A DNA stretch of 64,000 bases from Ascidiella aspersa (taxonomy: Eukaryota): positions 27,962,001-28,026,000 of the forward strand of contig OZ004607.1 of assembly GCA_963924565.1 (NCBI GenBank), in the 5' to 3' direction. Below are positions 1,375 through 28,500 of the stretch, one piece after another. Position numbers and translations under genes: made by a program. Under the pieces are notes generated by a model that was given only the letters and a program-made list of their open reading frames with translations, did not search any database and was not told the DNA's origin. Numbering within the stretch: the stretch's first letter is position 1; each line of letters begins with the position of its first letter.

Positions 1375-1560
1375 CTAACTCTCAATCACGCTCTCAGGGG
1401 CGTACTGGTTCTTGTATGCCGCAAGTGGGTCGTACTCGCAGTACGCGCATGCGCACGAGACAATGTAAGGCATGACGTGTGTTGACCTTGAGCCGTCCGG
1501 ACAGGTCAAGGTCACGTTGCGGGTTTCGACGTCGTCCGGCTTGCAGCAGTGACAGTTGGT
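1375..1560 (-). CDS. Last coding exon: C-terminal half of CTCK plus stop
   Basis: TNCHCCKPDDVETRNVTLTCPDGS...SCACAYC...ES*; AG acceptor, phase 0. Confidence 0.92.
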   Translation of the reverse strand, partial: TNCHCCKPDDVETRNVTLTCPDGSRSTHVMPYIVSCACAYCEYDPLAAYKNQYAPESVIES

Positions 1561-4500: not shown

Positions 4501-7500
4501 GATGAGACCCCTTCCCCGGGTGAATGATTTTTCTTCAATGTTGAAGTTTTCCAAGCATTATTACCGTAATTTTATTCAATGGTTGTATTCTATTCAATCA
4601 TGTGTTAATCTGAAAACTATGTTCTAAATTACACCAACAGTTATCCAAGCAAAATGTTACCCTACCGCTGGTCGATTGTAATCGACGCCATCAATGACGC
4701 AGTTCGACTCGACAGGAACGGTCGTGGTCGCGACACCAGATGGCGTTGTCGAGCCAGACTTGGTGGTCGTTTCGCCGCCAGATAGCGTAGTTGAGCTCAC
4801 CACCGATTTAGTAGTGGTTCGCGCCACACCGCCGCTAGTGGTTGACTGGTAGCTAGATTTGGTTGTTACGTGGCCTGAAGAGGTTGTGGTTTGGTCAACT
4901 GGTCCAGTGGTGGTTGGTGCGGTAGTTGTAGTGGTGATGGTCACGTTGTACGGTGCGCAGTAACAGCATGTGCCTGGAATGGTGTTAGAAATTTTTGATA
5001 ATTTGTCTTGACGTCTACTCCAATGCGTCGCGTGAATACAGCAACAAAAAATCAGCAGTTGTTTTTCCTGTATTATTTTGCATCGGTGATGTATAAGGTT
5101 TAAATTTCTCAACGATAAGTATAGTTCAACGCTATTCAACAGTGTGGAAGTAAGATCTATGCGAAAATAACTGTGAGACTTAATTTAACTACAAATTTAA
5201 TATAGACGCATTTTTCGTTACTGACTTAGGTTAGACTAATTGTGTTTAATTTTCAGTTGATCTGCACTTCCTTTGACTCAAGCAAGCGAATAAAACACAT
5301 CAATGCAGTCAGGTGTAATGCAGTGGGCATCAACATTTTGATTTAAGCCAGACAAATATAAAGACTACGGTGTTCCGCAGAAATTCCAATTCTGTATCGA
5401 AATTTGTAAATCGAAGGTTTTAGGGTTGGCTTTGGTGACCGTTAAAAAATTATAAGCCATACTTCATGATAGTATTCTCGTACCTGGTACTTCGATGAAA
5501 CGCTGACCGAGCTCGTCACAGGCCTCTTGTGTGAGTCGGCATCTGTCGCTCTCGCAGTGTTCCTGTCCATCGAGGCACTGGCAGTACATGCAGTCGCCCT
5601 TCCAGTAGTACTCGCCCTCCTACAAACAAATGTCGGTGACAATGTAAAGAAATGAACCAGCCATGGGACTCGAACTCATGGCCTGGACTTGATCGCAGTC
5701 TTTTAAAAAGGCACCTTTAAAAAAGATTTATCGCAAACGAAACTTTTTACGATGTCAGAAGTTTGCAACGTGGAATGCATTGTTTCTAAACAATCCTTCT
5801 GATTGAACTTGATATTTACAGCGACAAAAAGCGTGGTTATACAAATAGGTTAGAATACTGGGAAGCAATTTAACCATATGCACTCCTGGTCCCTTAATAT
5901 TAAAATTTTTCGAAAGGCTGGTCGGCTAGACTTCAAACTTTTGGACATTTTGTAAAGCGCACCACCAACGAAACATGAAAAAGAAAAAATGATAGATTTA
6001 GGAAATGTTAATCGTTTTTAGTCTCTTTCAGAATGTGTTTACATGTGGTATGCAAAGTTTTGATTTGTGTTTTAGTCAAAATTATTTCGCAGAGTGATCA
6101 ATTTGATTACACATTTCACCGAAAAAACGGTGAAATTGGTAGTAGCCTACACATAATCACATATGGTCCCACGGGAAGAGCTATCGAATCGAACACGAGA
6201 AAGGGACTGGTTAATTTCCAAGCTGCAACTCTGCCGTCACACTGGCAGCCCTTTTATCCTAACAATTTATAAGCTCTACCAGGCCAATGACAAAGTTAAG
6301 TTACCGTGAACGTCCTTCCGTCGTAGACACAGCTTCGGTCGCAGTCCTTCTCGTACTGAATGCACTTGCGAGTGGAGGCGTCCTTGATAGATCCAGACTC
6401 GCACCCACACAAGTCGCATTCATTCGCTGGCTCAGTACCGCAGCGCGAAGGAAGCTGCCCTGTAGCACAACAAATGCAACCCGTTTTAATAAAACCGCCA
6501 TCGTTTTAGTCATCAGGTATTTATTGGGTGATGTGGTATCTTTCCCGAAAAATCGCAGAGCGTAAATAGCCGTTTACACTATAGCTGCGCTGAGCTGGGC
6601 GTGAAATTATTTACACTACAGCTGAGCTGAGCTGGGCGTGAAATTGCGTTTGGACCATGGCTGCGTAATTAAAAAAGCAAATTTAGTTTCACGTTACGAT
6701 GTCAGTCGAGCAAAGCGTGAAAATCGCTCCAAGGCGTAACTTTTTGCCAGCTGCACGGAGCTTGAGTTTAGCAAAGCGTGAAACGCTCGCCACAATAGAA
6801 ATCAAACGCAAATCTCGGTTTGCTAAGCTCAGCGCAGCTGTATTGTAAACGGATCTAAGGCGATTCATATTTAGAATTCGACCGTGCAGAAAACCAATGA
6901 AGATTTTTTCTGTTAAATATCGTGCGAGCTAACATTAATTTTATGCAAATCAGAATACTGAATTCATTTATGCTGTTGCTTGCTAGACGGGTTTAAAAGA
7001 TTGGCGTACGACCTCGGATCTCGTAGCTCAGCTCCATGTTGCAATCATTACAGAAAATCTCACCAAAATGACGCTAAAGTGCTATACGATTGGTTTGTTG
7101 CAAGGATTTAAAGAAATTCTGAAACATAGGTAAGGCTAAACCAGGTCTCGTACTGTTTATAATAAATAGAGAGCATGTTTTATAGGAAATCATTTGTATG
7201 TTAATACTTGCCTTTACCGAGAATCTTCTGATTCTCGCATGTGACGAAACACTTGCAATCCCAGGAACAAGTTTTGTTAACCTCCTCGGTGGTCATTGAA
7301 ACGGTGGTGGTCACTTGGAGCTGCAAGTTTGGTTAAAAGTTTTGTTTACATTTTACCACCGAGAGTAATATGGGTTAAGGTAATATACACAATACATACC
7401 GTTGTGGTTTCGGCAATACTTGATGACGTTGTCACCACTTCTGAACGTGTGGTTCCGGTGGTGGTTGTTTCGCCGGCCTTTGAAGAGGTCGTTTCACCAA

Positions 7501-10500
7501 CCTTTCCAGTGGTGGTTGTTTCACCAGACTTTAGAGTGGTTGTTTCACCAGCCATTCCTGTAGTAGTTGTTTCACCAACAATTCCTGTAGTAGTTGTTTC
7601 ACCAACCATTCCAGTAGTGGTTGTTTCACCAGACTTTAGAGTGGTTGTTTCGCCAGCTATTCCGGTGGTGGTTGTTACACCAGCCTTAATAGTGGTAGTT
7701 TCGCCAGCCATTCCTGTAGTAGTTGTTTCACCAGCCATTCCAGTAGTGGTTGTTTCGCCAGCCTTTAGGGTGGTTGTTTCGCCATCCTTAAGGGTTGTTG
7801 TTTCGCCAGCCTTAAGGGTGGTTGTTTCGCCAGCCTTTGAAGTGGTCGTTTCACCAACCTTTCCAGTAGTGGTTGTTTCACCACCTTTGAGAGTGGTTGT
7901 TTCACCAGCCATTCCTGTAGTAGTTGTTTCACCAGCCATTCCAGTAGTGGTTGTTTCACCAGCCTTAAGGGTTGTTGTTTCGCCCGCCATTCCGGTTGTG
8001 GTTGTTTCGCCGGACTTCGAAGTGGTTGTTTCGCCGACCATTCCGGTGGTGGTTGTTTCACCAGCCATTCCAGTAGTGGTGGTTACACCAACGTTTCCTG
8101 TAGTGGTGGTTACACCAGCCTTAATAGTGGTGGTTTCGCCAGCCATTCCTGTAGTGGTTGTTTCGCCAGCCATTCCAGTAGTTGTGGTTACACCAATTAT
8201 TCCAGTAGTGGTTGTTTCACTAGATTTTGCAGTTGTTGTTTCACCAGTAGGTGTAGTTGTCTGAACCTCAGAGCGACAATAGCAACAGGTTTCTGGTAAA
8301 CGAACCAAAACCATTCCCTAAAATAGTACAAAAATTAATGTTAATGTAGTACTAATGGAGTGGTGGAAATCATTTCACAAACATAAGATATACCTTATCG
8401 CAAGTCAAAGTGCATTGCGTTTTGCATTCATAGGAGTTGTTGATACATGTACACACTTGGCAAGAGCTATGTTGTGTAATTTCAGTTCCTTCCTAAAATC
8501 AAGAAAGGTAAAGCTTTAGTTACCTTAAATTATTTGAAGGTATTTTTGAACCAGGAACTGAGTTGTTGCATATGTAGAAAAACAGGCGAAAGATGTGCGT
8601 TGGTTGGCAACAATTTATATTTTCGTTGAACACCGTAACTATAAAGCTAAAACATAATATGTACGGAGACTCACGATACAAATCGGCGTGGTTGTTTCGG
8701 GGCCTAATGTTGTGGTCATTCCAGAAGTAGAGCTACTCAGCATGCCGCCGCTCGTTGTGGTACCCATGGCCAAGGTTGTGGTGGTAACTTGTGGTCCGGT
8801 GGTGGTGGTAACTGCTGCACAACTTTCGGTTGTTGGAGCAAGGGCGCATCGTCCGTTGACATGAATGGCAGAGCTAATCACAAAACATAGTAAATATTTT
8901 TTCTATGTTTTAGAGGTATACTGTTTGCCGTATTAATGCGCACTAATTTTGGCTATTTTGCATTTATACCACGATAATTTACGAAAGCGATACTTGTGAT
9001 TACAGATAATGCTGACATTCTAGTTGTAAATCGCAAGTAGTTACCTATCTGCACATTGACAGTAGACGTTGCATCCTTCCATATGCTGACAATCGTTTTG
9101 TTCGCCTTTGCAGCCTAACAGACAAGAACATTCCTCCGGGCAAACGTAGTTAGTAGTAGTGGTTTGAATAGCAGGGGTAGTTGTAGTGTCGGCCATGCCA
9201 GAGGTGGTGGTGACCCCAGCCATTCCGGTGGAAGTTGTTTCACCAGCCTTTGAAGTCGTTGTTTGAACGGCTTTGGGAGTGGTTGTTTCACCAACCATTC
9301 CGGTGGTTGTTGTTTCACCAGCCTTAAGAGTGGTCGTTTCACCAGCCATTCCGGTAGTGGTTGTTTCACCAGCCATTCCGGTAGTGGTTGTTTCACCAGC
9401 CATTCCAGTAGTAGTCGTTTCACCGGCCATTCCGGTAGTGGTTGTTTCACCAGCTATTCTAGTAGTGGTTGTTTCACCAGCCATTCCGGTAGTGGTTGTT
9501 TCACCAGCCATTCCAGTAGTGGTCGTTTCACCAGCCCTAATAGTGGTTGTTTCACCAGCCTTAATAGTGGTCGTTTCACCAGCCTTTAGAGTGGTTGTTT
9601 CACCAGCCATTCCAGTAGTGGTCGTTTTACCAGCCTTGGTTGTTTCACCAGCCATTCCAGTAGTGGTCGTTTCACCAGACTTAATAGTAGTCGTTTTGCC
9701 AGCCTTAATAGTGGTTGTTTCACCAGCCATTCCAGTAGTGGTCGTTTCACCAGCCTTAAGAGTGGTTGTTTCACCAGCCATTCCAGTAGTGGTCGTTTCA
9801 CCAGCCTTTAGAGTGGTTGTTTCACCAGCCATTCCAGTAGTGGTCGTTTCACCCGCCTTAAGAGTGGTTGTTTCACCAGCCATTCCAGTAGTGGTCGTTT
9901 CACCAGCCTTTATAGTGGTTGTTTCTCCAGCCATTTCAGTAGTGGTCGTTTCACCAGCCCTAACAGTGGTTGTTTCACCAGCCATTCCAGTAGTTGTTGT
10001 TTCACCAGCAATACCAGATGTGGTGGTTTCGACCGACACAACGGTGGTTGTCGCAACGGGTCCCTTGGTGGTTTGAACGATGGTTGTGGTAGTCGTGACG
10101 ACATTTTCAGATATGCACCTAGATTAAATAATGACGTTTTATTTTTAACAATTTATTTAAAGTTTGGAATCACAAAAATCTACGATTTAATATCGGTAGG
10201 CCGATTGGGCTTTTTACCAACACAAAGTAGTACGGCTACGTATTGCCAGTAAAAAAGGTTTCCTCACTTGCAACAAACGTCGTCTGTGTTGAGCAGAATC
10301 TTGTTTTCGGCTCGACAAATCTCCTCAGTCAATGCGCAGAAAGGAACGCAAATTTCCCGGTAGAGACCTTCCTCGTAGTAGCAGACGCACGCCTCGCAGT
10401 CGCCGCGAATGTAAGTCTCGTTCACCTGCAAGTCCATAGAGATTGAAAAGATTGAACGGACTAAAAATTAGGCGATTTTATTATCTGCCAAAAAACTTCT

Positions 10501-13500
10501 TTTGGGAGCCCCCTTTTGTTTACCAAACCACAATTTTGGATATTTTAAGTCAGTGCTTTTCAACAGAGTGTACCAAAATTCTTAGGGTGTACCACATTAA
10601 CGAGGTGAAGTGGGGTGTACAAGATTTCACATTACAATAAGCCTATGAGCGGGTATCATAATAAGTAAATAGGTTTATTACCAGTCTGACTGGAGTGTAC
10701 AACACATGGCACAACATGTAGTTAGGCGTGGGTAGCTTATAAAATACTATATTCTATCTGTAACATCATAACCAAACATTTCCCTTGAATCGTTATTGTA
10801 CTAGCTAGTTCTTCATAATAGTTAATAGATTTCAGTACAGCAGGGTGTATGTTTCTTTAAGTTTACTGCATTGCGTGTACTGGAGTGTATAATTTCTTCA
10901 GTAAACATAAAAGTGAGTACTGTTTTACAAAATGTTGACAACCACTGTTTTAAATACCTATATTTTGAAGTTTTACATTTATATGATTGCTATTTTTTAT
11001 ATGCTGTCAAAAAGTAAAACTGTGGCAAGATAACACAGTATTTGGTTTCAAATAGTAGCGGATTCTCGTGAGCCGCAAGCTATTTTTGTACTTTGAAGGA
11101 AGAAAAAATACGAAATCCAATTCCGTTGCCCAAACGTTCAGAAGATGAAAAAACGCAAAAAATCCTGAAACTGGACGAGAGTTGTGATTAAGGTATATTT
11201 TCCATGTGTATTAGTACGGAGTGACCACCATTTGCCAATGGAGCGCATAATCTCACCGGGTATATCTCGTCTCCCACTCGACACGGCTCGGCACAAGGAG
11301 TCTCGAAGTGCAAACACATACTGGTGTTCCACATAACCGTGTCCTTGATGCTGCCCGATGGACACGCGCAATCTCCACATGTTTCGTCCTTTTGGAAAGG
11401 AGGCGATGATCCTGGTACGTATTCGTTCTGTGATGTTGGAAGAGGAATGTGGGTTACTAATAGACATATAGGGTTTATTCGAAACCAGTATGAGATCTTC
11501 TAGATTCTAGACCAGTGTTCTCCTATGCTGTAAAACCGACAAAGTTATCCGGTATTACTCAGATTGCATTCCCTTGGCTTATTGAATTATTGCATTATTG
11601 CAGTGAAATGGTCTTCAACTAAAAAGGTTAAAAAAAATATTTTTTGTGGTTTGAAACGACGACGGATTTTTTACACTTTAAACAACTGACCAAATTTGTT
11701 TAACGATATGTTGTTATCAAAATGGAAAACGGTCAAGTATAGCATTTCGATGTCCATAAATGGCTAAAAAACATTTTTAAATAGTGCGCCAAAATACATT
11801 AGGTTATATGTTTAAAAAAATAATAATATTGCAAAGTGTAAAATTAGTTTACAATCGATCAAATTATTTTAAAACTATCTTAATCACGATATCATAATTA
11901 TAAAAAGAGAGACGCAAACGACACTACTTCAACTAGTTTAACTTAGAATTCACTTTGTGTTTTTCAAACATTTGTTGGCTAAGTAAATCAGTTAGGCCCT
12001 TGAGTCGATTACGTCTGACTCAAAAAGTTTAACAATTTATCCAAAATTATGAATTTACATCTAAACATTTACCTGCTGGACACATGTGACGTATTCTGTG
12101 CACTTGTCGGGGCAGAGTGGTCCAGATGGGGTGGTGGTTGCAACCATTCTGGTGGTGCTTGGTGGTTGCGTGGAAGTTGTAGTTGGCGCCGCTTCGCAAT
12201 GGCAGCAAACGTCATCGCCAGATACGAAAATCATGCCCTTCTGTAATTCGAATGAAAGAAATTTTAATGTTTTTCTGGAATTTCTTTCAATTAAAAAAAT
12301 CGTGTCAGGTAATATTTTAAATGCTTACAAAAATGTATAAGTTAATTTTGGAAAACAGTGACTATTGTCAACCCTGACCATGATTGTATAATACAGGATT
12401 TTCTCGGCTTACAGGTTGCGATAAACAGGACATGTGGACACACCCATTGTAAGAACATATTACTGCATTGCTTGTGATTATACATATTACAAAACATTAA
12501 AAAACGAAGAATATAATTGTAATGCTGTTGTTTCAAAGACAAAAAGAAACCAGGCAAGGAAGGTAGGAAAAGTGGTTCTCGCAAACCGACAAGGAAATCT
12601 GTCAAGAAAAATATTTTTTAAATAAGTCCCCGAATCAACAAGCACGGGTTCGAATCCCACTCACGGAGGTGCAGTCGTACGACATCAGGTTGCACTTCTC
12701 GTAGCAGCGAGTGGTCGGCGATCCGTCTACCATCTCGCACGCGCACTCTTCGCACGTGCCCTGGGGGAACTTGCTGCCAACTGGGAAGGTCTCCCCGTTC
12801 ACCACACAATCGTCGCACGATTCGGGATAGTGCAAGCACATTCCAGTTTCCCATGCCTCGTCTGCCATACAAAGCATTGGTGTTATACGATATTTGTAAA
12901 TCGTCATTTGTAGGGCAACCGTCAGAAGTCAAAATCGGGTGTTTCAACAAATGGCGAATCTTATAACACTTACAGACTCGTCGCAAAATGGAAAAGTTAT
13001 TTCTCAGGTTTAAAACTAACTTCTCATCTACTCAAGCCAGGTCCATTTGAAGTCATTGCCACGATAGGACAAGTCCAAGTCAAGTCATTTCGCTAAGAAA
13101 AATTCTCGATTTAAACCAAAAGAAAGTTAACTCTTAGTTCATATAAGTTCATTTTGACAGGGAAACATGTGCACATTGAGTCATTTGCAATGTAGGTTGA
13201 GGCCCATGTTAATTTGTTTTTAACCAATAGCTAGTCAATTTCCATTCCACGTTGTCTGACTCAGCAAGCTAAAATTAAGCCATGGCAATCACCGTGTAAG
13301 TGGTGGACTAGTGATTCGTTAACTTACAACACTAAAGACTGTAATAATGATACAGTTTTACCTTCCAATTGGAATAAACATAATAGCCCGTTCTACGATT
13401 CATTAAAATAGACAAAAGTAGTACCTCTTGTGGATCGGGCGGGGCAGGGACAGTCCATGCACAAGAAAGGATCGCTGCCGATAGCGAACGATGGAATCTC

Positions 13501-16500
13501 CATTGGGTCGAAGTTGCGCAACTCTTCACAAGTGAGGTTGTGCACACAGCTTTGTTCGCAAGCTGAAATCATAATTAAACGCTAATACAAATCATCCGCT
13601 CGCGTTGAATTGAGTATTTGATATTGCTGGAGATTAAATAATTTGCAGTGGAATATACATTGGGCTTTAAAATGGAAAGCAAAGACAACAAACATATATA
13701 TTTATGTGCACAGAATATGTCACATATTAAAAAGACTTCCCAGTAACAGATTTTCTCATGGACATACGTTCCGATTAAAGCACAAATTTATCACCTGAAT
13801 GGCACATACAGTATTTTTCATTCCTACTTCATAACATGTTGATCTAAATACAAAGAAGGGTGACAACACACATGGCATTGGACTATAATATTTATAATAA
13901 CAAAATCAGTTTCAAGCTTACCAAATCTGCAGGCGATAAAGCTTCCCAATCTTTAAAAGCGAGATAACGAGCGGCCCCAATCAACAATATCGAACTTACG
14001 CGTCAAAGTGGTGGTCGGCGGAACAGTAGTGGCCTCGGTGGTGGTAGTTGGTGCTTCGGTGGTCACGACGCTCTTCCGTGTGGTGGTTGTGACTCCAGGA
14101 CAGAGGAAGGCGGGAGGGGAAAGGATGCAACGCCAGTTGGCGCGGTCGTACACGTTCTGCGCGCTGTTGGGGCAACGGCAACTGGAACGAAAAAATTGCG
14201 TTTTGACTGGTTAAGCAAGGTGGAGGGGCATGCGACCTGAAAGTTGGATGGTCTGCCAATGGTTACATTTTCACAAATAGATTTGGAATCGTTAAAATAG
14301 GTTGAAAAAAGTGATGGTACGATCCTAATTTGTAAAAAAGGACATTGCTGTTTGTCGCGAAATGTTAGTTTCGCAACAGAAAACACGGGGCGAAATTAAT
14401 ATGAAAAAATGAATTTGGACCGGTAAAAGACAAAATTTGCTGCTAATTCATTTGAAATATTGTCATAGGAATAAGCTGCATAGGATTATTTGGTTTTACG
14501 AATGCGATAGCAACTATAACTCCGACCAAAACAAGACGAACTTACGCCAAAGTACATTCTGGCAAAGCTGAACAAGCGTCGGTTGAGCCATCACAGTTTG
14601 AAATACAGAGACATGACTGCGAGCAGGTTGGTGGTGTGGCGGTGGTGGTTGCCTGACCAGGAGTGGTGGTTGTATGACCAATAGTTGTACCAGAAGATGT
14701 GGTTGCCTGGCCAGCAGATGTAGTAGCCTGACCAGCAGATGTAGTAGCCTGACTAGCAGATGTAGTAGCCTGACCAGCAGTTGTAGTAGCCTGACCAGCA
14801 GATGTGGTAGCCTGACCAGCAGTTGTAGTAGCCTGACCAGCAGATGTAGTAGCTTGGCTAGCAGATGTAGTAACCTGACCAGCAGACGTGGTAGCTTGGC
14901 CAGCACTGGTTGTCACTTGACCAGAGGAGGTATTGGTTTGACCACCTTGTTTTGTGGTAGTTGCAACCGGAGTAGTGCTGCTTACTACAGATCCCGATGT
15001 GGTGGTTGAAACTGGTTCTGAGAGAAAAAGTGCGTAATGTTGTAAAAATAATTTCAACTTTTTATAAATGTATATAGAAAAAGGGTAATGGCAAACACAA
15101 TAAAATAGACTCGACTCTGGTTTCCAAATTTGACTCCGGTTTTCCCAATTGGTTCCATTAGGGGGCATTTCTTCAGAATTATTTTAAGGAGGTGATTTGT
15201 GATTTATATGTTTAGGGTTGGTCTGGGACATTTGAAACGTGCTCGTTGCTTAGATAACTTGCAACGGGGACTAGGCTAAATTGATAGATAAATTTATGTT
15301 TTAAGATATAACTTTCCACTTTTCAGAGAGAATGTACCTTTGCTTGTGGCAGTGTACGTAGCAGTGGTCGTCGCTTGGGTCGCAACGCAGGCGCAGCATT
15401 GGTCTGTAAAAAAATACGCGTTTGAAAATTGTAATACAAAGATACGAAAAAATACACTGTCAAGGTATAACTGCCGCTTTAGCGTATTTACCATCATTCC
15501 CTCTTCTGAGCACCTTTCCTTCCTGTTGGCAAATCTCGGGTGTGAGGTTGCACGTCACAGAGCACACTTGCTCGCCGCTCGGAGTGCAATTGCAAGAGTA
15601 GCAGTCGCCCTCTGGCCATGTTGTGGGCTCTAAAAATTGAATTACAGGTTTTCAGGCATTTATATAAAGTACAATATAATTTACAAATGCCCTTGTACAT
15701 AACACGCAACTAATGTCAAACAAAATACCACCCTTTTTTAATTTGCGGTAAATTAGGCCATTGCTGCCAAATTAGGGGTCGCGCAAGTTTTATGTGTCGC
15801 GATAAATTCACACAAATTGTGTTTGAAAAGCTCTACTATACACCAGTTTGAAAGCTCTACTATATACCAATTCAAATCTATTATAGCTGCAACATAAAAA
15901 TGCAAAGTGTAGCTGACCGTCGATGAGGAACGAGATCTCGCTGATCTCCGGCTTCCTCCTCTGGACGGGCGATCCGTCCTTGGGGATCTGCGTCCCGTAC
16001 ACGTGAAGACGGAAAATGCGCGCCGAGCTCTGGAAGGGCTCCGACACCTCGGTGACAAACTCGCTTCCCGCCTTGCATCCGATGGTCGCTACTTCCACCC
16101 ACTTAAAGGCGCCGTAGCGCTGCTCTTCAAGCGCCTGAAATCGGACACGAATGGAGATCGATGAGCATCGTGTTTGGCAATACCACATGTTAAGTTAACT
16201 TTCCTATCTCTCATGCGCTTTAATTTATGTGTTGGGCTCATGTGACTTTAATCTTAGTTTTTCCATCACTTTGTGTTTGTGCTTCAAGCAGTAAGGAGCT
16301 TCAGCCTTTATATTATAGCTTGTTGGTCTTTCGGTTATCTCTCGTACGAAATATGTGCGACCGAGTGATTTCTGGCATCGGCACACATTACAGCGGAGCA
16401 AAAATGGATAAGTGAATAACCCAAAGGTAAAGTCATAATTGAGTGACGGAGAATACATTTCATTGAATACGGTAAGATTAAAATGTGCAAGGATGCAGTC

Positions 16501-19500
16501 ATTTCAACTTTCCAACATATTTCTGTCATAAATTTGCTGGATGGTACTGATGTGTTGCAGATGTACAACAACCTATCAAATAAACTAAACTCATGTCATA
16601 CCAACCGGCAGCGAAGTTTTTTAAGATGACTCTATAGCAGTGGTTCTCAACCGCCGGTCCGCGGACCGGTGCCGGTCCGCGTCAACTTTCCTGCCGGTCC
16701 GCCAAATATATTACAATCTTAAATCTCAACTACAAAATGCAAGATGCTGATTGCTTGTCCACCAAATTTAGAACTTCGCCAGCTTAATTTGCAACATTGT
16801 GACGTAACATAGAGTTAATGGTCTACTTTGGACTTTATCGTACGTCACAATGGTGCAAGTGTTGTACCCAACTGTTTAAAATTAGGCTACTGATAGTTCA
16901 AGTCGTAAACTTTAGGACCAGTTGTATATGAAAAACTTTAATAGAACCACGTATAACACGTATGATATAAAAAAACAGCAGCAAATTGCTCAATGAATTT
17001 AAGTTTCCGCTCTTTGCTTTTAAGTTGCATACTTTTGTCATATTTGCATTTTTCGTTGATTTTGATTTTTGAAGGTCCACCGGTCCGCAAAATTTGTTTT
17101 GAAATTTTACCGGTCCGTAAGGTAAAAAAGGTTGAGAACCACTGCTCTATAGTGTTATTCACTTTACTCTATAGTTTTACCAAACATATGGTGTATGTTT
17201 TTATAAATGGCCAATACGCTTCGACGCTTCGTTGTACTTACAATCATGGTGGCCGCCACTTCAATGTCTTCCATCGTATCACTGAGGCGGCAGTCGACGC
17301 GCAGACGTATCACGTGGTACAAGTATCCAAGGTCGAATTCCATGTCGCGATTGAACACATCGCCTGGTGATAAAAATAAGTCAAATACCGTGTTAGATTG
17401 ATATGTTTTTTACACAAAACCTATGTATTCTACTATGCTATATAGCCGACGAAATCGTATTTTTTTCTTATACTTGCTGTATACATTTATGCTGGCTGTA
17501 AAATTTGTATGCTATTACGTTGTGGCTGTCTTTATTTTATTCATTTTTATTGCAACCACCATTGGGTAAGTTTGTTTGTCAAGTTAGAAAATAACGACTT
17601 TGAAATATAACACAAGGAAGCTTCTATCAGTAACCTGTTATATATATTATACAGTGCGTTAAAATATTGCAATTGAATAAAAAAGCTTAAATTTCTACCA
17701 ATCAGTACAATGTGAAACATATTTTTTTATCACAACAGGTGTCTCAACCAAATACCAACTTCTAATCAACACAAAGTGATTTACAGATTTAGAAGGCCGT
17801 CAAACCAGCTGAGTAGGAAATGCGGCGGCCCGAGTTCACCAACCTGACGGGTTGACATCCCAGTAGGTTTGAGAGTTCTCGTCGACCGCCAAACTGCCGT
17901 CGATGCTCGCCGTCTCGCCTTGCTCGTTGCTGTACTCGGGAAGCTTGTCGTCCACTCCGTTGGTCCACACCTCGCCCGGCATGTACATGGTTTGTGTCAT
18001 CCAGTTAGGCACCATCGACCAGCCTAGCATGGCGAAGAGGAGGCAAGTTAGATCTTACAAGGGCGAAGGTTTGTAAACCGAAGTTGAGAGAGAACACGCT
18101 GTCGAAGGTTTCACATACGGGCGTTTGGTCAATATAAATTTAGTTGTTTGTCACCATTTAACCTGCAAAGTTGCGTTTAGACCGAACAAGAAACGTGTCA
18201 CAGAGAAATGAAGTTCGATTTGTTTGTTTTATGAAAACGATCAACTTGAGAATTAAACGAAAACTGAGAGAATTGGTTACTGAAAGATTTCTACAAACCC
18301 CGAAAACCAGAGATCGACCAATATAACTGTTTTTTGAGCGATATACCGACAATAAGACTTTTTTGTATTTACCAACCAATAACGATAGACGTTTTTATTT
18401 ACTTGACATACACTTAATAACTTTAATCAAATGAGCATATAATTCAAATTACATTCAGTTGAACGCAATAAACCAAACAATCTTTAGTCGTTCTGCTATA
18501 AAGTGAAAGCAAACTACAAATAAGAAATCTCAATAATTATAGGTAACTTGTTAAAGGAAACGTTGTGGAATAATTTCATAGTAAAATATCGCCAAAGTAT
18601 TGGCCCAAGTTTACCGATGTCGATATGTCGGTGGGTGTGAAATGTCGGTCAATATTATCGGTAAACGTTTTCTAAATACTGGTATATCTCCATTGTGGAC
18701 ACAAAATTATATACAGTTTTTTTTCAAAAACGCAAGATCGTAATAACAGCAGTTCAAGCACAACTAACTTGATCCCATCTTCTTTCCGTCCATCTCGCAA
18801 GGGCAGAAGTCAGCGATGGTCTTCACGCACAGCAGAAGCCCTGTGTTCCATACGGTTCCGGCCGGGCAAGAGCACTGGCGCTCCTCGGCACACTTGGCCA
18901 CGTTGTCGCACTCGGCCTTAGGCTGGCCGTCGCAGTCACTGTCGCACACGCAGGCGCACTCTATAGAATAGGACACGGGGTCATCAATTGTTCTTTTCAT
19001 AAAGGACCGGATAACTGTAAGATTGGCGTTCAAGGGCCGGATAGAAATTTTGTGTCGAACTTTATTAAGTTGATGTATTGTTAAACGAAGAAAGCATTAT
19101 TAACTTGGCAGCAAAAGCTGTTGTGGCTTTTATAAATTGTCGTTTTGTTTATGTAATCAAAATTTAATTTGAAATTGCATTCGATAACAACTGTACTTTG
19201 TACTGATTAAGGAAAAAAGCCGCGGGGCAGTACAATTTACTCTGTGGGCCGGATCTGGACGTAGTTTAATGACCCCAGGAATAGGGTGACAATACAATGA
19301 TTGCAAATATTTAGAAGCGTTTGTTGCACATTCGACCGCATCGAAATCGAACATTTTAGATATTGGATTTTTAGAACAAGACTTCTCAACCCTAAGGGGC
19401 CATGGTATCCTATTGAAAGGGATTACAGGATTTTAAGATAAAGTAGTACATTTATTGTTGAATAGCGATAAAATGCATGACGTTTATGTACAGTAACTAT

Positions 19501-22500
19501 CCTTTTCTTTATAGGTCAACAAAGTAAGTAGCAAAGACACGTTTGCTTATCTATTTTAAGTGTAGCTCTGAAAACATGCCTTATTTTGATGTGTATCTGA
19601 ATTGAATGTTCTTAAAAGAGTCGAGAAGTTCTACTATTGAATTATTTTGCATAATATATAGTTTCAATTGTTAAATTGTTCTTCCGGCAAAGCAACAGTG
19701 TACTTATAGGTTGTTCGCATTGTTAAGCCTAGTTAGTTGTCAACACTTACGTTATATCATAATGTATATTTTAAAATTGATTTAGCAATTTTTGTAACAC
19801 CACTGTCTCCAGTTTTATATAAAACAGTGTTTTTCTCACCTCATTATTTTATATATGATGACATAAGAAACCATTTGCAACGTATAGTGCCTATTTTCAC
19901 ATTGCAGCGCAACTCCCAGATTTGTTTATAGGATATACACTTGAGACGTAATTATTACAGAAAGTGGTATCCTGTGAAAATGTCATAAAACAAAAACAAT
20001 CCTAATCGCAAAACATAATATAATTTCCACAACAAATACAAAAAGTGAACATGAACTGCTTAAGCCCTCACCAGGGACGCATTGAGATTCGTCTCGTCCG
20101 TTGCTGCAATGGACCTTGCCATCACAAACCATACTGGAATCGGGTAAACACTCCCCGTTGCCACAGTAGAAAGCACATGCTGGGGTCGTGGTCATCTCTG
20201 GGGTCTAATAAACAAAAATAGATTTATAGCGGTTTGATTTTCGAAAACAATCAACTTGAGCATTAAATGAAAGCCATGAGAGGTGGTTACTGAAATAATT
20301 ATGGAAACTCCGAAAACACCGTCTTTGTGTAGACGTTTCATTAGTAAAGTATGCAGACGTTTCATTAGTAAAGTATATCGAAAAAGGAAAAGGTATTTTA
20401 CCGTCGTGGTTTCTCCACAGTTGAAGTCATCGCCAGCTATCACTTGTCCGCTGTGGTCACAATAAAGGATGTAACAGTGGCCGAGCGACTGTCCGCTTTC
20501 AATAACGGCCCCTGAAACGAAATTACAATGGTGACATACTTTGTGTACAGCTCTCTACTTAATAGTGGTATGTACGATATTAATGCTATAACATTATATT
20601 GTACTCCATAATGATTAATACGCAGTATTTAAGCTATTGCAAGCAATCACCTAATTCGTAGATCTTTCCGTTGTATACGCATCCTTGCATAGGAGTGCTT
20701 GTCATTGGTGGAGTGGTCGTAGTCTCTGGGCAGTCGTACTCATCTGTGCCATCTTGACAATCTTTTTTGCCATCGCATCTAAAGTTAAATTTACACTTGA
20801 TAATAGCTACATCAATTCGGTATGGTATTGTACTCAGTTTTGAACGTGATGTTTTCAAACAATTTAGGTATGAATCACTTTCAAAAAGAACAACCTAGAC
20901 TTAGTATGTTTACTAAGTTAAAGACAAAGGGGAGATATAAAGATTCACGAAACACTTTTTATTTGTGCATGTAGATTACAAAGAAGTTCAGAGTTATTTT
21001 GTATAACTATAAACATTATCGCATTTTATTTTATTTCAGTAGCATTTTGTTTGAAGCATTTATCTTTATAAATACAATTTCCAAGGTGTTTAAACAGGCC
21101 GAAAAACGCAGGAAACTTACTGCCATTTAATGGGAATGCATCTGGTCCCGTCACATCTGACCATATTGGTTCCGCATGGTTCCATTGTGGTAGTTGGTGC
21201 ACTGGTTGTGACTCCTGCGTCGATATAATAACGGTTGACAAAAAATTGCCAATACTTCTACTGCTACTAAATATACGATATAAAAACAAAAAAGAACATA
21301 AAAACGAAAGAAACAATGTGACCTTATTGCATGAAAAGTAAAGCATTTTTTTTATTAAAATCGCTTTTATTAAAATCGAAAATCGCAGTTTTTTAAGTGT
21401 AACAACAGGCAATGTTGCAAACTATCTCCTTGTAAACTGCAAGTTACCTGCTCCTGAGCTAGTAGTGGTCACACCAGATGGAACGGTGGTTGTGACCACA
21501 CCGCTGGTGCCGGTCACCAGACCAGTTGTGGTGGCCGGGACGGTGGTCGGGCTAAGTATCTCCTCGCAATCGGGACAGCATCGGCCGTCTACACTGACCG
21601 CCATGGTGCCGCTGGGACATTGAGCGCACACCATGACCGTACAAGCCAGGTTGCCCGCTTGTGTACACGTGCAGCTGGAACAGACGCCAGTCGACCAGGT
21701 AACTCCGACCTGTGTTTTGAGGCAAGTGTTTCAAGCAAAAACAAGTATCTCAAAAAAATATAAGCTTTACGTTTCAGACCTTTTAATTTAAAGTACAGTC
21801 CAAAACGTTTTAATTTGAAGTACAGCCAAAACGGAAAACACTAATCGTGTGGTTTAATCACGAAATTCTGTAAACCAATTGTTACAATATATATTGTTAG
21901 CCAAATAAAATAAAGCCGAATTAACTACGAAGAAAACAAAATGCGTGTCGAGAAACATTTTTGTGGAACTGAGTGATGTTGCATAGGAAGTAACCTATTA
22001 CCAGCAATAGTTTAACAGGTAAAAAGAATATAATGTCCCCGAAAGGGAAATCAGTTGTGAGTTTGATCAAAAAGAGATAAGTTTTGGTTTTCTGCGTAAT
22101 TATACAAACCCAGTTCATGGCAGTATGAACAGTCAAATATATGCTTTGGTCTCATGGGGGCCTTAGGAAACAAATGTTAAATGACTCTCGAAGGAACACA
22201 CATGGTGTTCGATAACAGTGGCAAAACGTGAAAAGAAAATAATAATAATAATAATAATAATGCCGAAATCTTAAAGAAAACACTTTTCTTTCACGTCTGG
22301 ACTGTCATCGTAGCATCGCTAACCCGTATCATCGCTAACCCGATCCCCAGTGGTGGCCCTAGTTGCAAATATGAAGCTGTTTCAAACTTTTAACATACCG
22401 CATGGTATACGCCGGCCGGTTGTTCGCACACGCCAGTAGTTGTAGGTCTGCAGCTGCAGCACACTCCATCGTCGGCGACGTGGTTGACCAGCTCAAATCC

Positions 22501-25500
22501 CGTCTCGCATTGCAGACTGCAGTGTTCGCCACAGCTCGCCTCGCCGTCTGGGTTACATTTGCACATCGTGCATTCGCCAGTAGTCCACACCGCGTCCATC
22601 TACACACACGAGTTACTTGTATAAGGCTCGGTTGGGCAAGTTAAGCTGAAGCGGTTGCGGATATTTGCGATGCCGTTTACTGTGGATCAGGGGCCGATCC
22701 TCGAATTTTGTTTTTGGGGCATGAAAAATGTATAGTTATGACGTCACAAGGTGTGTCATACTGTGAAGTCACAATCAAAACAATCTTATGAGATTAAAAT
22801 GTATGTAAACGTCAAAACCGAACACGGTACGTTTTGATTGAGAGGTTACCATTAACATGGGCAACATGTTATATAAAATCGTAAAATCAAAAACAAAATT
22901 GCTTTAGATAGTTAAATTTAGTAAAAAATATAGTTTTTGGGGTGCATGGTCTCGTGCCCCCCACCACTTGAATCCGCCCCTGCTGTGAATGATTTTTGTT
23001 ACCACGACCAACTAACCAAGGCGGTTCAATGACTCGTCGATTACACGGTAAATGGTTGTGATGAAACATTTCAAACTTAGCAATTTACATTTTTTTCATA
23101 AACTACTCAGTGATCGAAGAAAAAATATTAATACTTTGGTCGATCGAAAGGAAATGTCGTCGCCTTTTTTCGAAACCAAAAAGTTTTCTATTTTTATAGG
23201 TAACAGCAAACAGGTCGACTGATTAAATCTTGATGGGCGTAACAACTTAAATGGTAAAATTTCCACACTCACCTCGTAGCGAGTTCCGTTGTGTACGCAT
23301 TGCCTCTCGGCGCAATAACAGCACTGTCCAGGTTCATTCACAAGTTCTTGGCTGTCTGTGCACTGCAAATTACACGACCTGGCGCACACGAAGCCCTCGT
23401 CGGTACACATACAAGTGGTGCATGTGCCCTCTTCGACCTTGTCGCCAAACTGTGGACAGTGTTTTATGACAATTATTAGCTGATATGGAATGGACACACC
23501 AGAACTAATGCAGAGTCTTGAAAACATCAGAAACTTATGACCAAAGTCTTGAAACACCAGAACTGATGCACATTAAACGGCAAAATAATCTAAACACTGC
23601 GTAACACTTTTGACAAACATCGACACTGCAAGACTTTGACGCAAACTCATTCTCGCGTACTCTTCCAAAAATGAGATACATATTGTAAATATTTTTTAGA
23701 AATATAAAAGTCATAGCCATTTTTTCTTAATACTATACAAGTTGCTTTAGGTAATCTTGTTTTAAATAATAACCCCTAAGAGTTCGTCTAGTATTTGCTG
23801 CTATCAGAACGTCGTTTTATAACTTTGTTTACACGATAAGAGCGACTTTAATCTAACATTTGGTAATCCTATGTGGTTATACAAGACGAAAATTTTAATA
23901 ATTAATACATCAAGTTATTTTAATTGCTATTACAAAACGAGAAAAATAAATTAAATATATTTACCTGATAAAACTTGCCGTCTTCTTCTCTATAGCACGG
24001 GCACTCTTCGGGCATGATGCAGGTGCCATTGTTCATTACCTGGCCTTCGGGGCAGACGCAAGCTTTCTCGCAATCATCAACGCACTCTGAAGGGTTCTGG
24101 CACGTTTTCGAACATCCGCATGCAGTCGGGACAAACGGCTCGGTACATACCACTGAAGTAAAGTAACGTTAACCACAAATAAAGTCTAAGTACAAAGTAT
24201 TTTTATTTGTTTTACACTTACGCTCTGTTGTAGTTTCTACACCGGTAGGCGTGGTGATTTCTGTCGTTTTTATGGTTGTAACGCCGGAAACCGTTGTCGT
24301 CAAGGAGGCACTGGAACTGCTTGTAACTTCTACATAAATACACGAACGTTAATGAAAATTAATGATGAAGGGTAGAACATCCTCATATACGTTACCGATT
24401 TAACTTAGGCAAGCCAACCTACAGAAAAGTTATAAAGTATTTTCGGAAGTAACGCAAAAATACAAATTTTGTGAGTTATATGTAAAACTTACAAATTCGT
24501 TGATTTTGTTTGTAACGCACCTAACACGGATTTAAACTATTTTAATGCAAAAAAATAGATAAAAACTATTTTAAGCACAAAAAAATAAAATAAAATAAAA
24601 AAATCCAAAATTTGAGCTTAGGGGATTTTGTATAGACAATGTCGTTTTCAGAACCCCAGGCGGGTTTAGGTATGTCTGTTGAATTACCTGGTACGGATGT
24701 AGTAGTTGTTCCAACAGTAGTCTTCGGATTGTATTTCGCGGTCGTTGTTCTAGTTATGGTAATCTTTGTTGTTGTTGTATCGTGCCCGGCCATGCTGGTT
24801 GTTGAAACTGGTCCACCAACAGTGGTTGTTGTTTCATGTCCTGGCATGCTGGTTGTTGAAACTGGTCCGCCAACAGTGGTTGTTGTTTCGTGTCCCGGCA
24901 TGCTAGTTGTTGAAACTGGTTCACCAATAGTGGTTGTTGTTTCATGTCCTGGCATGCTGGTCGTTGAAACTGGTCCGCCAACAGTGGTTGTTGTTTCATG
25001 CCCGGCCATGCTGGTTGTTGAAACTGGTCCGCCAACAGTGGTTGTTGTTTCATGTCCTGGCATGCTGGTTGAAGAAACTGGTCCGCCAACAGTGGTTGTT
25101 GTTTCATGTCCTGGCATGCTGGTTGTTGAAACTGGTCCGCCAACAGTGGTTGTTGTTTCATGTCCCGGCATGCTGGTTGTTGAAGAAACTGGTCCGCCAA
25201 CAGTGGTTGTTGTTTCATGTCCTGGCACGCTGGTTGTTGAAACTGGTCCGCCAACAGTGGTGGTTGTTTCATGTCCTGGAATGCTGGTTGTTGAAACTGG
25301 TCCGCCAACAGTGGTGGTTGTATCATGTCCTGGCATGCTTGTTGTTGAAACTGGTCCGCCGACAGTGGTGGTTGTTTCATGTCCTGGCATGCTGGTTGTT
25401 GAAACTGGTCCGCCAACAGTGGTGGTAGTTTCATGTCCTGGCATGCTGGTTGTTGAAACTGGTCCGCCAACAGTGGTGGTTGTATCATGTCCTGGCATGC

Positions 25501-28500
25501 TTGTTGTTGAAACTGGTCCGCCGACAGTGGTGGTTGTTTCATGTCCTGGCATGCTGGTTGTTGAAACTGGTCCGCCAACAGTGGTGGTAGTTTCATGTCC
25601 TGGCATGCTGGTTGTTGAAACTGGTCCGCCAACAGTGGTTGTAGATTCGTGTCCTGGCATGCTGGTTGTTGAAACTGGTCCGCCAACAGTGGTAGTAGTT
25701 TCATGTCCTGGCATACTGGTTGTTGAAACAGGTCCGCCAACAGTGGTTGTTGTTTCGTGTCCTGGCATGCTGGTTGTTCTTCCAATGGTGGTGGTTGTCT
25801 CGTGAGCTCTGGTTGTTGTAGTGGATACTTTGCCTGTGGCAATACGTTGTATTAAAAAGCTATATAGTAAGGATTAAGGAATGCATAATGTCGATCGTAA
25901 TTACCTGTTGGTGTTGTAGTTGAAACCGTTGTCGTTGGAACTTCCTGTTTATAAAATAAAAGAAAAATATAAAAAAAGTAATAACTGACATGCTTGCAAT
26001 CAGAAAATTGACTAACCTTACAAACTGCCAATATCGCGCATCGAGGCTTGTTGTTGAAGCAAATGCACTCGGTGCATTCGTCGGGGCTCCATCGTTCGTC
26101 AGTCATGTGGATACCACCTGCGACGCGGATTGTAAACAAACGATTTATGCTATTTTATGAAATCGTCAAGGATATTTTATAAAATCGTCAAAAGATTCGA
26201 CTTTGATTTAAACCCTAATCTGTTAACCAAAGAAACTCATTTGCCGCTAACTTTAAACCACGTATTTTCTTACCGTTGTTGTCCAGACACGAACACTCGG
26301 AGGCTTCCACGCAAGTTGCTCCATCGAAGAAGGTGTTCTCGCCGCATTCGCAGCACACCTGTTCGCTCGTCACTTCGTTCGAGTAGCATCCAGCACCCAA
26401 CGAGTGGCACACTCGAGTGCGACAAGAGGTGCAGTTGGTTTGGATCATAGGCGGAGTGCACGCTGCAAAGACGGAAATGTTTGGTAAGAAGGGCGAACAT
26501 TTTAATATTGGAGTTCTATTAGCTTTTGTCCGTTTACGGCGGTAATAGTGTGGGACTCGAATCGATAGTTATTTAGTGTAATCATGACATAGAATAAATC
26601 GCATCACAAAGCAGTCAATTAATTTCGGCAGACCCGGTTTATTCGGAAATATGTCATATAAATGTCGTTACAAGTGTTTCAAGTCGCAAGGTTGGGTTAC
26701 AAATTGCCACTGCATTCTTCTTGGCTTTGGTGTTAGACTGCATAGACTATACTAAAATTAAATACAGAAGTTCAATATCGTCACGTTCATAACGAAATTG
26801 CCCAAGTCATATTTTATTGATTTTCAAAGTTTTTGATTCAGTCACTCCTTGTTACCATCACCATCAACAGAAAAAGTGCTTGGGTCATTTTTAGGTCATT
26901 TCCCACTCCTTTGTGCAAAAAAATGGCTTAGGCACTTTTTCTATGGATGGGAAAGCAACAAGGATTGACTGAGGCAAAAACTCTGAAAATCATAAAAAAT
27001 GACTTAGGCAATTTGGTTATGAGCGTGACGATATATTAAAACGGTATTTCGCCTATTGGGGGAGAAGTCTAACGTGGTATCCTTTATCGTTTAACTTGAC
27101 TTAAATTCGAAAAAGTTAATCAAAGCAGCTTTATGAAAATGAAATTAATATTTTTGTAAGCGCACGACTTTTTTTCCAACTGCTAACCTGGAGGTGGCGT
27201 TGTGACTGGGGGAAGTGTGGTCGTGGTTTCGACGCCGCCAATGCTGGTGGTCGTAGTCACCAATCCTGGCGTTGTAGACACCATTCCTGAAGTTGTAGAC
27301 ACCATTCCTGAAGTTGTAGACACCATTCCTAGCGTTGTAGACACCATTCCTGAAGTTGTAGACACCATTCCTGGAGTTGTAGACACCATTCCTGGCGTGG
27401 TGGTCGACACAGTGACTGGTCCGCTGGTTGTGGTAGTAGTCTCCGGGCAGTCGTACTCGTCGCGTCCGTTTACGCAGTCAATGTTTCCATCGCAAAGCCA
27501 TTTAAGCGGAATGCAAGAGGTCTCGTTGCACTGGAACTCGCCGGGACAGTGTTTGTCTGCAGTAGATTTAAATTGAAGTTTGACTGTTTTACCATTGGTT
27601 TTGTTGTTGAATTTAAACTGTAAATCTTTGCTATGGTCGCTGTCATCACAAAATTCAATTGCTTACGATTTTCGCTTTGATTTCGATTTTGAACTTTACT
27701 ACAGTTTTTTGAAGTATTGTTTTCCGAAAATACACGAACATCGCAAAAATCAGTTCAAATAATAGCGCGATATCTTTTGTAACTAAAATTACAATGGATT
27801 TAGTTAAATCGCCACAATGCTGTGTTCGACAAACTTTTTTAAAATGACGATTCATAACCCAAAAATACACCTTTGTTGTTGCCGAGATAAGAAACTGGGC
27901 CCTTTGCAACACCCTGGCTCACTGCCACTACTTACCACATACTGGACAGCATTTTCCCTCCTCGTAGACAAGGTGGAATCCGTCTTCGCAAGCCTCAGCT
28001 GCGCACTGTTGTTGCACGCAATCCACGCTTCCCAGTTCGTTCTTGCAAGTGCAAGTCTCGCATGGGCTCGGTTCCCAAACGGCTCCGATTTCCATGCACC
28101 TGTAACCATGGAAATGCGACCGTATTGTAATCTATACACACAATACATAGGCAGTGTTGTTATGACTTAAGTCACTGTTTTCAAATGACTTGACTTGACT
28201 TAAGTTTTTATTGCTGCATATTGCGTTTGTGCTATTTTTTAAATTAAATTGTGACTCATAATCGGGCGAGTTAACCAATTTTAATAGTTTAAAAGTTTAC
28301 TTTTAAGTCAATGACATGACATAATTATATGAAGTTTTCATACTTTCGCACTTTATTTTATTTTGATTTAAAATTCTACAAATAGCGTTTGAAACAAAAA
28401 CATGCTTTACTAATCAAAATCCGTGATTAGGTTTTACGAATTTATGTTACATAAAAACAAACACTTAATCACATTCCGAACGCTTCGCATCCCATGCAAG

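Follow-up and report, generated by a model that had tools for sequence, protein, structure and literature searches.

A probable galactose-binding-like domain nested inside a VWC module encoded by a giant mucin-like gene in Ascidiella aspersa

Can a whole protein domain be housed inside a VWC module, and not simply beside one? This question is raised by a 64,000-nt stretch of the Ascidiella aspersa genome (assembly GCA_963924565.1, contig OZ004607.1, positions 27,962,001 to 28,026,000), hereafter called the window and numbered 1-64000. Its minus strand carries a very large predicted gene resembling those for gel-forming mucins. Within this gene, three exons lie between two others that appear to encode the separate parts of a single VWC module. 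We consider it fairly likely that the 173-residue product of these three conserved exons interrupts a single VWC and forms a jelly roll hanging from a loop of that module. The exons concerned are as follows.

Exon A, 18960-18769, minus strand: a TIL-like domain with ten cysteines, after which come the first VWC cysteine and the N-terminal hairpin of the split module; phase 1/1.
Exon B, 18023-17844, minus strand: 180 nt, phase 1/1; predicted first strand of the insert, a long conserved loop (PGE.W), and AVD..T.W.
Exon C, 17363-17242, minus strand: 122 nt, phase 1/0; the middle of the insert, with the FDLG motif and a conserved DCR.
Exon D, 16134-15918, minus strand: 217 nt, phase 0/1; the end of the insert, with W.E....GC, FR, GT, RK, and I.E/D motifs.
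Exon E, 15629-15492, minus strand: begins PTTWPEGDC; the rest of VWC subdomain 1 and the start of subdomain 2 (cysteines 2-7).
Exon F, 15403-15338, minus strand: VWC cysteines 8-10, then a Thr-rich linker.

All splice junctions in exons A through F are of the AG/GT type, and exons B, C, and D can be read in a single frame from A to E. Together these three exons span 519 nt, or 173 codons, with outer phases 1/1, and they supply residues 7424-7596 of the predicted host protein. The G+C content is 52-61% in the exons versus 32-38% in the introns. Exons B, C, and D are also placed in the gene by a splice-and-codon model, which is not an independent witness because it was trained partly on these same exons. 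The TIL-like part of exon A ends in CPCEMDGKKMGS, and this exon matched TIL in Pfam at only E 0.27, which is under the cut-off. The insert is net acidic (29 D+E versus 14 K+R) and has exactly two cysteines, both conserved. An initial annotation, made from the letters alone, had described a three-exon insert of ~173 aa with outer phases 1/1. This description is borne out by the splice ends, the frame, the 519-nt length, and a second species discussed below, and every motif that the annotation quoted is found in the insert.

Two other features of these exons and their introns deserve mention. The intron between C and D holds a noncoding, transposon-like element of ~500 bp (16629-17153). It has inverted ends of 24 nt and is apparently flanked by an 8-bp duplication, and we take it to resemble a miniature inverted-repeat transposable element of the hAT type. 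In exon B, positions 17967-17985 encode a Y/L.PGE.W motif that is invariant in three copies of the exon and resembles a strand motif of VWC modules. An hhalign comparison of exon B with this VWC strand gave a weak alignment (P 0.01, probability 4%), and the resemblance may be fortuitous or may be what is left of a duplicated VWC segment.

Is the arrangement conserved? Metagenome contigs L015-L017, which are mutually 99.7-99.9% alike and were counted as one other species, carry exons A-B-C-D-E in the same order as in the window, with sizes of 192/180/122/217/138 nt and the same phases. The spliced inserts of the two species align without a gap and are identical at 103 of 172 residues (60%). By exon, the window sequences match L016 at 54-60% identity for A (two copies), 53% for B (each of two copies), 62-63% for C, and 64% for E, and the CC.C of exon F also occurs in L016 at 7267. 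The proportion of synonymous differences (pS) between the species is 0.69-0.86, and that of nonsynonymous differences (pN) is 0.22-0.35, with the insert exons conserved to the same degree as their flanks. Synonymous sites are thus saturated, and the relation of pN to pS suggests purifying selection.

The unit composed of TIL, split VWC, and insert occurs twice in the second species (L016:4749-6922 and L016:14626-15934), and the second copy is visible as far as its exon B, where the sequence ends. Exons A and B of the second copy are 70% and 42% identical to those of the first. Because of its neighbors, the module in the window apparently corresponds to the second copy, and no trace of the first unit was found in the window between 21448 and 21214. 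Conservation in a second species, together with the additional A and B in L016, points to a unit that is old and once existed in two copies. Exon D alone was recovered from six further records as single-exon fragments, and seven homologous exon-D fragments in all show local identities of 55-67% to the window copy. The exon-D sequences all share an RK pair and an acidic residue in the last strand (8/8 in each case); their tree has one well-supported split, that of P0006+P0007, and is otherwise not resolved. Among proteins of up to 2,000 residues there was no spliced or full-length homolog, only one additional single-exon open reading frame. In the species' own 308.6-Mb assembly of 75 contigs, exons B, C, and D each returned one match, to itself, and these counts are lower bounds. 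Prokaryotic relatives of exon B were confirmed neither among 339 pattern matches in genome contigs nor in plasmids, and for this reason a recent transfer from bacteria is unsupported.

Does the insert truly interrupt one module? The ten-cysteine VWC pattern is made up of one exon-A cysteine, in excess of the ten of TIL type, and nine cysteines in exons E and F, and all ten are kept in two species. When joined, the two halves can be aligned over the full 56 positions of a profile built from 14 sibling modules, with a score of 36.8 bits. The break falls ten codons after the first VWC cysteine. If the insert is left out, the first and second cysteines are 19 residues apart, and this spacing is 17-21 residues in 19 of 20 other VWC-like modules (it is 12 in the remaining one, which is apparently mis-called). 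Two of three sibling VWC exons scanned match Pfam PF00093, and exon E alone has no Pfam match. For one intact sibling VWC, AlphaFold predicts (mean confidence score, pLDDT, of 80) that residues 2-7 form a hairpin and 8-12 a loop, with a three-stranded sheet beginning at 13, and the top Foldseek match to this model is the VWC of collagen IIA (probability 1.00, E 0.035). By equivalence with the intact sibling model, the insert would emerge from loop 8-12, between hairpin and sheet. The earlier proposal of an insertion within one VWC is therefore supported by sequence, although not by structure. The same annotation held that elsewhere in the gene C.C.xxG..Y is followed directly by W....C..C.C, which is correct for the protein but not for the gene, where an intron interrupts 14 of the 20 modules at this point.

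What fold might the insert adopt? A reference profile was assembled from bacterial domains of the F5/8 and NedA-like types, 134 at first and 72 after reduction at 60% identity. The window insert scored 19.0 bits against this profile and was colinear with it over profile positions 32-125, which corresponds to E 5e-8 as a single comparison or roughly 1e-3 when scaled to a Pfam-sized library. The insert of the second species scored 13.2 bits over a shorter stretch. None of 500 shuffles rose above 4.9 bits, and the reversed inserts scored 1.8 and 0.5. Among domain controls, three VWDs reached at most -1.3 bits, ten of the gene's own discoidins ranged from -1.2 to 16.5, and two Pfam-positive F5/8 domains of another gene scored 42 and 45. 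None of 153 other 172-residue segments of the same protein exceeded 1.7 bits, and a scan of the whole protein ranked the insert as the best single domain. Likewise, four CBM32-like motifs occur in the expected order and spacing across ~108 residues. An open frame of 665 codons that contains two F5/8-like domains (L021/L026, G000:C1:32587085-32587753), presumably BTBD9-like, also served as a control.

As judged by eye, exon B opens a few residues before the first predicted strand and exon D closes with the last, and because of these positions the ends of the domain would coincide with the ends of the cassette. The galactose-binding-like fold has adjacent N- and C-termini, as insertion into a loop requires. 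We regard a galactose-binding-like jelly roll (F5/8-CBM32-type) as the highly probable fold of the insert. Over residues 7424-7596 no domain was reported by the profile built from ten discoidins of the same gene, and the insert appears, with moderate strength, to be closer to bacterial F5/8-NedA domains than to those discoidins. The initial annotation had anticipated such a fold, with motifs unlike those of the gene's discoidins, and the 72-member profile with its controls lends this moderate support; other trials, given below, were weak or null.

Membership in a lectin family, which was also suggested at the outset, fares less well. CBM32-type galactose binders use a His-Arg pair to hold sugar (PMC5712786). 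In the three insert copies, the residue after T.W, which would be equivalent in position to this His, is D, D, and E. The F-type fucose motif HX24RXDX4(R/K) is absent from the spliced inserts of both species. Because the sugar-binding His and the fucose motif are missing, the insert would not be a member of either the CBM32-type or the F-type family, although it may still work like a lectin. The Asp64 of eel (Anguilla) agglutinin is, we assume, the Asp of the DL motif. In that protein Arg79 lies 15 residues after Asp64 (PMC5712786), and the insert's R85, within DCR and kept in 2/2 species, lies 15 residues after the DLG Asp and may be the counterpart of the Arg in the His-Arg pair. The motif h2DGx, by which F-type lectins bind calcium (PMC5712786), is matched exactly by AVDGN in one copy and with one residue off by AVDGV and AVDEN in the other two. 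Invariant residues in the predicted binding-face loops include PGE.W, the two cysteines, Arg85, and RK (8/8), which suggests a reshaped site.

Several results weigh against a jelly roll nested in a VWC, and they are best considered together with the readings they would favor. The bacterial reference set was picked by sequence and not by known sugar binding, and the first and last strands of the insert were placed by eye and not by the profile. An earlier 16-member profile gave just 7.7 and 6.3 bits, with shuffles reaching 6.2. By hhalign, the insert matched the bacterial 72-set with a probability of just 38% (score 28.7, with column shuffles up to 22.8), and its P of 0.004 against the 16-member set equaled that of a VWD negative control. 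Comparisons by hhalign with the two-domain BTBD9-like pair and with the gene's own discoidins were null (probability 0.3% in the latter case). The insert exons, taken singly, had no match in Pfam and none of relevance among PDB sequences. The AlphaFold prediction for exon D alone reached a pLDDT of 51, too low to be usable, and an Atlas feature search with the exon-D homolog P0008, whose models were poor, returned helicase 1B beta-barrels (0.92) and no galactose-binding family. A different beta fold that bears CBM32-like motifs by chance would account for the missing library matches, the modest hhalign probability, and the helicase barrels. It would leave unexplained why four motifs are ordered and spaced over ~108 residues and why the insert scores far above shuffled, reversed, and real-sequence controls, and we consider it improbable. 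The nesting itself is weakened by the finding that the C-terminal half of the VWC alone scores 34.0 bits, such that the N-terminal half adds a mere 2.8, and by the report that a Crossveinless-2 (CV2) mutant lacking disulfide 1-4 still refolds (PMC6270503). These observations would suit an arrangement in series, wherein the TIL domain ends in a vestigial stub, a new domain follows, and a truncated VWC of nine cysteines folds alone; PGE.W in exon B could then be a leftover VWC strand, as its weak alignment might hint. However, all three copies keep the first VWC cysteine and the G-K.MG hairpin unchanged, cysteine 4 is kept in 2/2, and an arrangement in series would leave both cysteines unpaired in a secreted protein. 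We therefore judge this unlikely.

Even if both the nesting and the jelly roll are correct, the domain could act as a spacer or could bind protein or lipid in the manner of coagulation-factor C2 domains. This is a serious possibility, given that the sugar-binding His is lost in 3/3 copies, the F-type motif is absent, acidic residues predominate, and phospholipid is bound by domains of the same fold that lack the basic triad (PMC5712786). The features that speak instead for a sugar site are an Arg spaced like the sugar-binding one and kept in both species, and the invariance of surface-type residues (PGE.W and RK) in the predicted binding-face loops. Another proposal is that exons B-D form a regulated cassette, skipped in some tissues to give an intact VWC and included in others to give a sticky mucin. 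Their 519 nt and outer phases 1/1 would permit clean skipping in frame, and the skipped form would be a full-length VWC with a spacing of 19, one residue longer than the commonest form. Such symmetry is weak evidence, though, when phase 1 is the commonest intron phase. Moreover, the skipped junction would be without the turn glycine of most siblings, its residues differ between the two species, and three exons would have to be lost together. One RNA run with the same species label, of which ~6% was read, yielded 151 reads that fall mostly on the intronic element and come from its other copies; no splice joints appeared, and the bins covering exons A, B, C, E, and F had zero depth, which makes the run uninformative on skipping. 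We consider regulated skipping unlikely. The most ambitious synthesis is a long shot: a new calcium-dependent tunicate lectin subfamily that uses an Arg/Arg-Lys site, not His-Arg, to bind acidic glycans, carried as a three-exon cassette nested in the VWC of a giant mucin, duplicated as a unit, and switched by skipping to give plain and sticky mucus from one gene.

How, then, would a nested domain operate? In the model that we favor, the VWC halves would close around the base of a jelly roll hung from the VWC loop. The adjacent termini of the jelly roll would very likely allow VWC disulfide 1-4 to form across the insert. Cysteines 1 and 4 are bonded in the first VWC of CV2 (PMC6270503), and closure across the insert is likely rather than forced because the CV2 mutant without this bond refolds. 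It also seems reasonable to expect, though with less assurance, that the two cysteines of the insert pair with each other and that AVD..T and the acid of the last strand together hold a calcium ion. The insert domain is probably spliced in as the normal state, a point on which we are rather confident. Far more tentatively, the insert might be a binding head on a secreted polymer, in which a long first loop, Arg85, and the Arg-Lys pair replace the His-Arg galactose/fucose site. The ligand would then most likely be acidic, for instance a glycan of mucus, tunic, or microbes that bears sulfate or carboxyl groups; a protein, a lipid, or no ligand at all would be equally likely.

Where might the insert have come from? 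Its 5' intron lies 10.33 codons after the first cysteine. Among 20 other modules none has an intron at +10.33, with ten carrying a phase-0 intron, two a phase-1 intron elsewhere, two a phase-2 intron, and six none. An intron at this site is present in the following module.

Upstream sibling VWC-like module, 20402..20778 (exons 20778-20651 and 20511-20402), minus strand: phase-1 intron at +10.33, no insert.

This phase-1 intron of the sibling is also found in L016, after 9282, and it fits the arrival of a 1-1 cassette in an existing phase-1 intron, a route that we favor slightly. Less easily accommodated are the facts that the sibling with this intron ranks last in similarity among 15 modules compared and that in the closest siblings the introns are of phase 0 and lie one or two codons off. 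Exon shuffling, as first proposed for this cassette, is a plausible origin. The coincidence of domain ends with exon ends and the sibling intron at the same codon in both species agree with it, whereas its phase symmetry carries little weight when 53 of 110 modeled introns are of phase 1, and no donor copy was found in the species' own genome (where counts are lower bounds) or in prokaryotic contigs and plasmids.

The remainder of the locus provides the setting for this module.

Host gene, 1380..64000, minus strand, extending ~18 kb past the window's right end: delineated by a splice-and-codon model and single-exon Pfam matches.

The predicted gene, modeled from the window and neighboring stretches, has 111 exons and encodes ~9,350 residues without a stop, of which 19% are Thr; in the model, at least three discoidins contain visible local errors. 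Its architecture includes EGF repeats, three VWD assemblies, TIL/VWC and LDLa modules, Thr-rich tracts, and, at its C-terminal end, a cystine knot. Pfam scans of single exons gave matches to VWD, C8, TIL, and Cys_knot, with two of the three VWDs scanned in this way and the third recognized by eye. The count of 11 coagulation-type (F5/8) discoidins given in the initial annotation was reproduced in the model. With its VWD-C8-TIL units, Thr/Ser-rich tracts, and cystine knot, the gene is predicted to be gel-forming-mucin-like. Within it, positions 54337-56994 hold two discoidin-plus-linker blocks that are near-identical in protein, the mark of a recent tandem duplication within the gene. Near-perfect Thr-rich tandem repeats, typical of mucins and likely variable in length, fill long single exons at 24688-25833, 9045-10118, 7400-8317, and 14546-15017. 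Upstream on the same strand and beyond the window (L005-L006, ~100,700-109,300 in window numbering), exons like those of protein tyrosine phosphatases were recognized by eye. Elsewhere in the genome, at least 17 closely related discoidin exons (L018-L037, contig C4, about 7.7-10.1 Mb and 26.9 Mb) constitute an expanded family unrelated to the insert, and a single glycoside hydrolase family 6 match exceeds the Pfam cut-off (L112, G000:C5:19613851-19614090), as suits a tunicate, since among animals this domain is known from that group.

The conserved nesting of a domain, probably galactose-binding-like, within the VWC of a giant mucin-like protein is real. Its parts and the process that could join them are known, and what is new is a whole domain nested in a 60-residue module. 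In the literature searched, whose coverage left most subscription papers outside, no title or abstract opening reports a VWC interrupted by a discoidin or lectin domain, and the available portion of PMC12817120 holds nothing relevant to a VWC-nested domain. A VWC has ~60 residues and five disulfides, and a conserved loop domain of 173 residues shows that such a module can act as a mounting socket. It would also show, if the cassette came by exon shuffling, that this process can put one module inside another and not just between modules. Nested domains of this kind are missed because the split VWC and the divergent insert both escape Pfam when exons are examined one by one. Should the insert bind glycans, it would be a candidate for the element that gives tunicate mucus its specificity, whether in the feeding net, the gut barrier, or an adhesive, and it is small and expressible. 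If it does not, it is an architectural curiosity of a large mucin-like gene.

Comparison with known systems places these features in context. The best profile match of the insert is to bacterial F5/8-type C and NedA-like domains (PF00754 and PF22633), including the CBM32 domains of sialidase and galactose oxidase, with which it shares the ordered motifs A(V)D..T.W, DLG, W, and R.fRl. It differs from them in its ~173 residues with a long first loop, its two extra conserved cysteines, and its three exons, and its score falls under the level needed for curated assignment to the family. From the CBM32 galactose binders it departs by having Asp or Glu in place of the His of the His-Arg pair. With F-type lectins of the Anguilla agglutinin family it shares a predicted fold; one of three copies matches the calcium motif exactly, with the other two one residue off, and the fucose motif is present in neither species. 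The FA58C discoidins, including the 11 in the same host protein, would belong to a common superfamily with the insert, which is unlike them in being without a terminal cysteine pair and in residing inside a module instead of between Thr-rich linkers.

Comparable precedents exist for the module that holds the insert and for the protein that holds the module. The first VWC of Crossveinless-2 has the same ten-cysteine pattern, and many VWCs accept extra residues in the corresponding beta1-beta2 loop region; the insertions described in the available part of that report number 2-10 residues, versus 173 here (PMC6270503). The portions of PMC4948705 and PMC6109156 available describe no module nested in a VWC. 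The first of these sources catalogs the architectures of 17 multi-VWD proteins in Ciona, and an ortholog of the host gene may already be among them. The host gene differs from known invertebrate mucins in its ~9,350 residues, its 11 discoidins, and the lack of a second VWD block in the model. It shares three VWD-C8-TIL assemblies, F5/8 domains, Thr-rich tracts, VWC modules, and a cystine knot with the invertebrate gel-forming mucins and with hemolectin and SCO-spondin-like proteins (PMC4948705). Similarly, Ciona Ci-GFM1 carries a chitin-binding domain as an accessory binding module added to its scaffold (PMC6109156), much as the host protein described here carries its insert.

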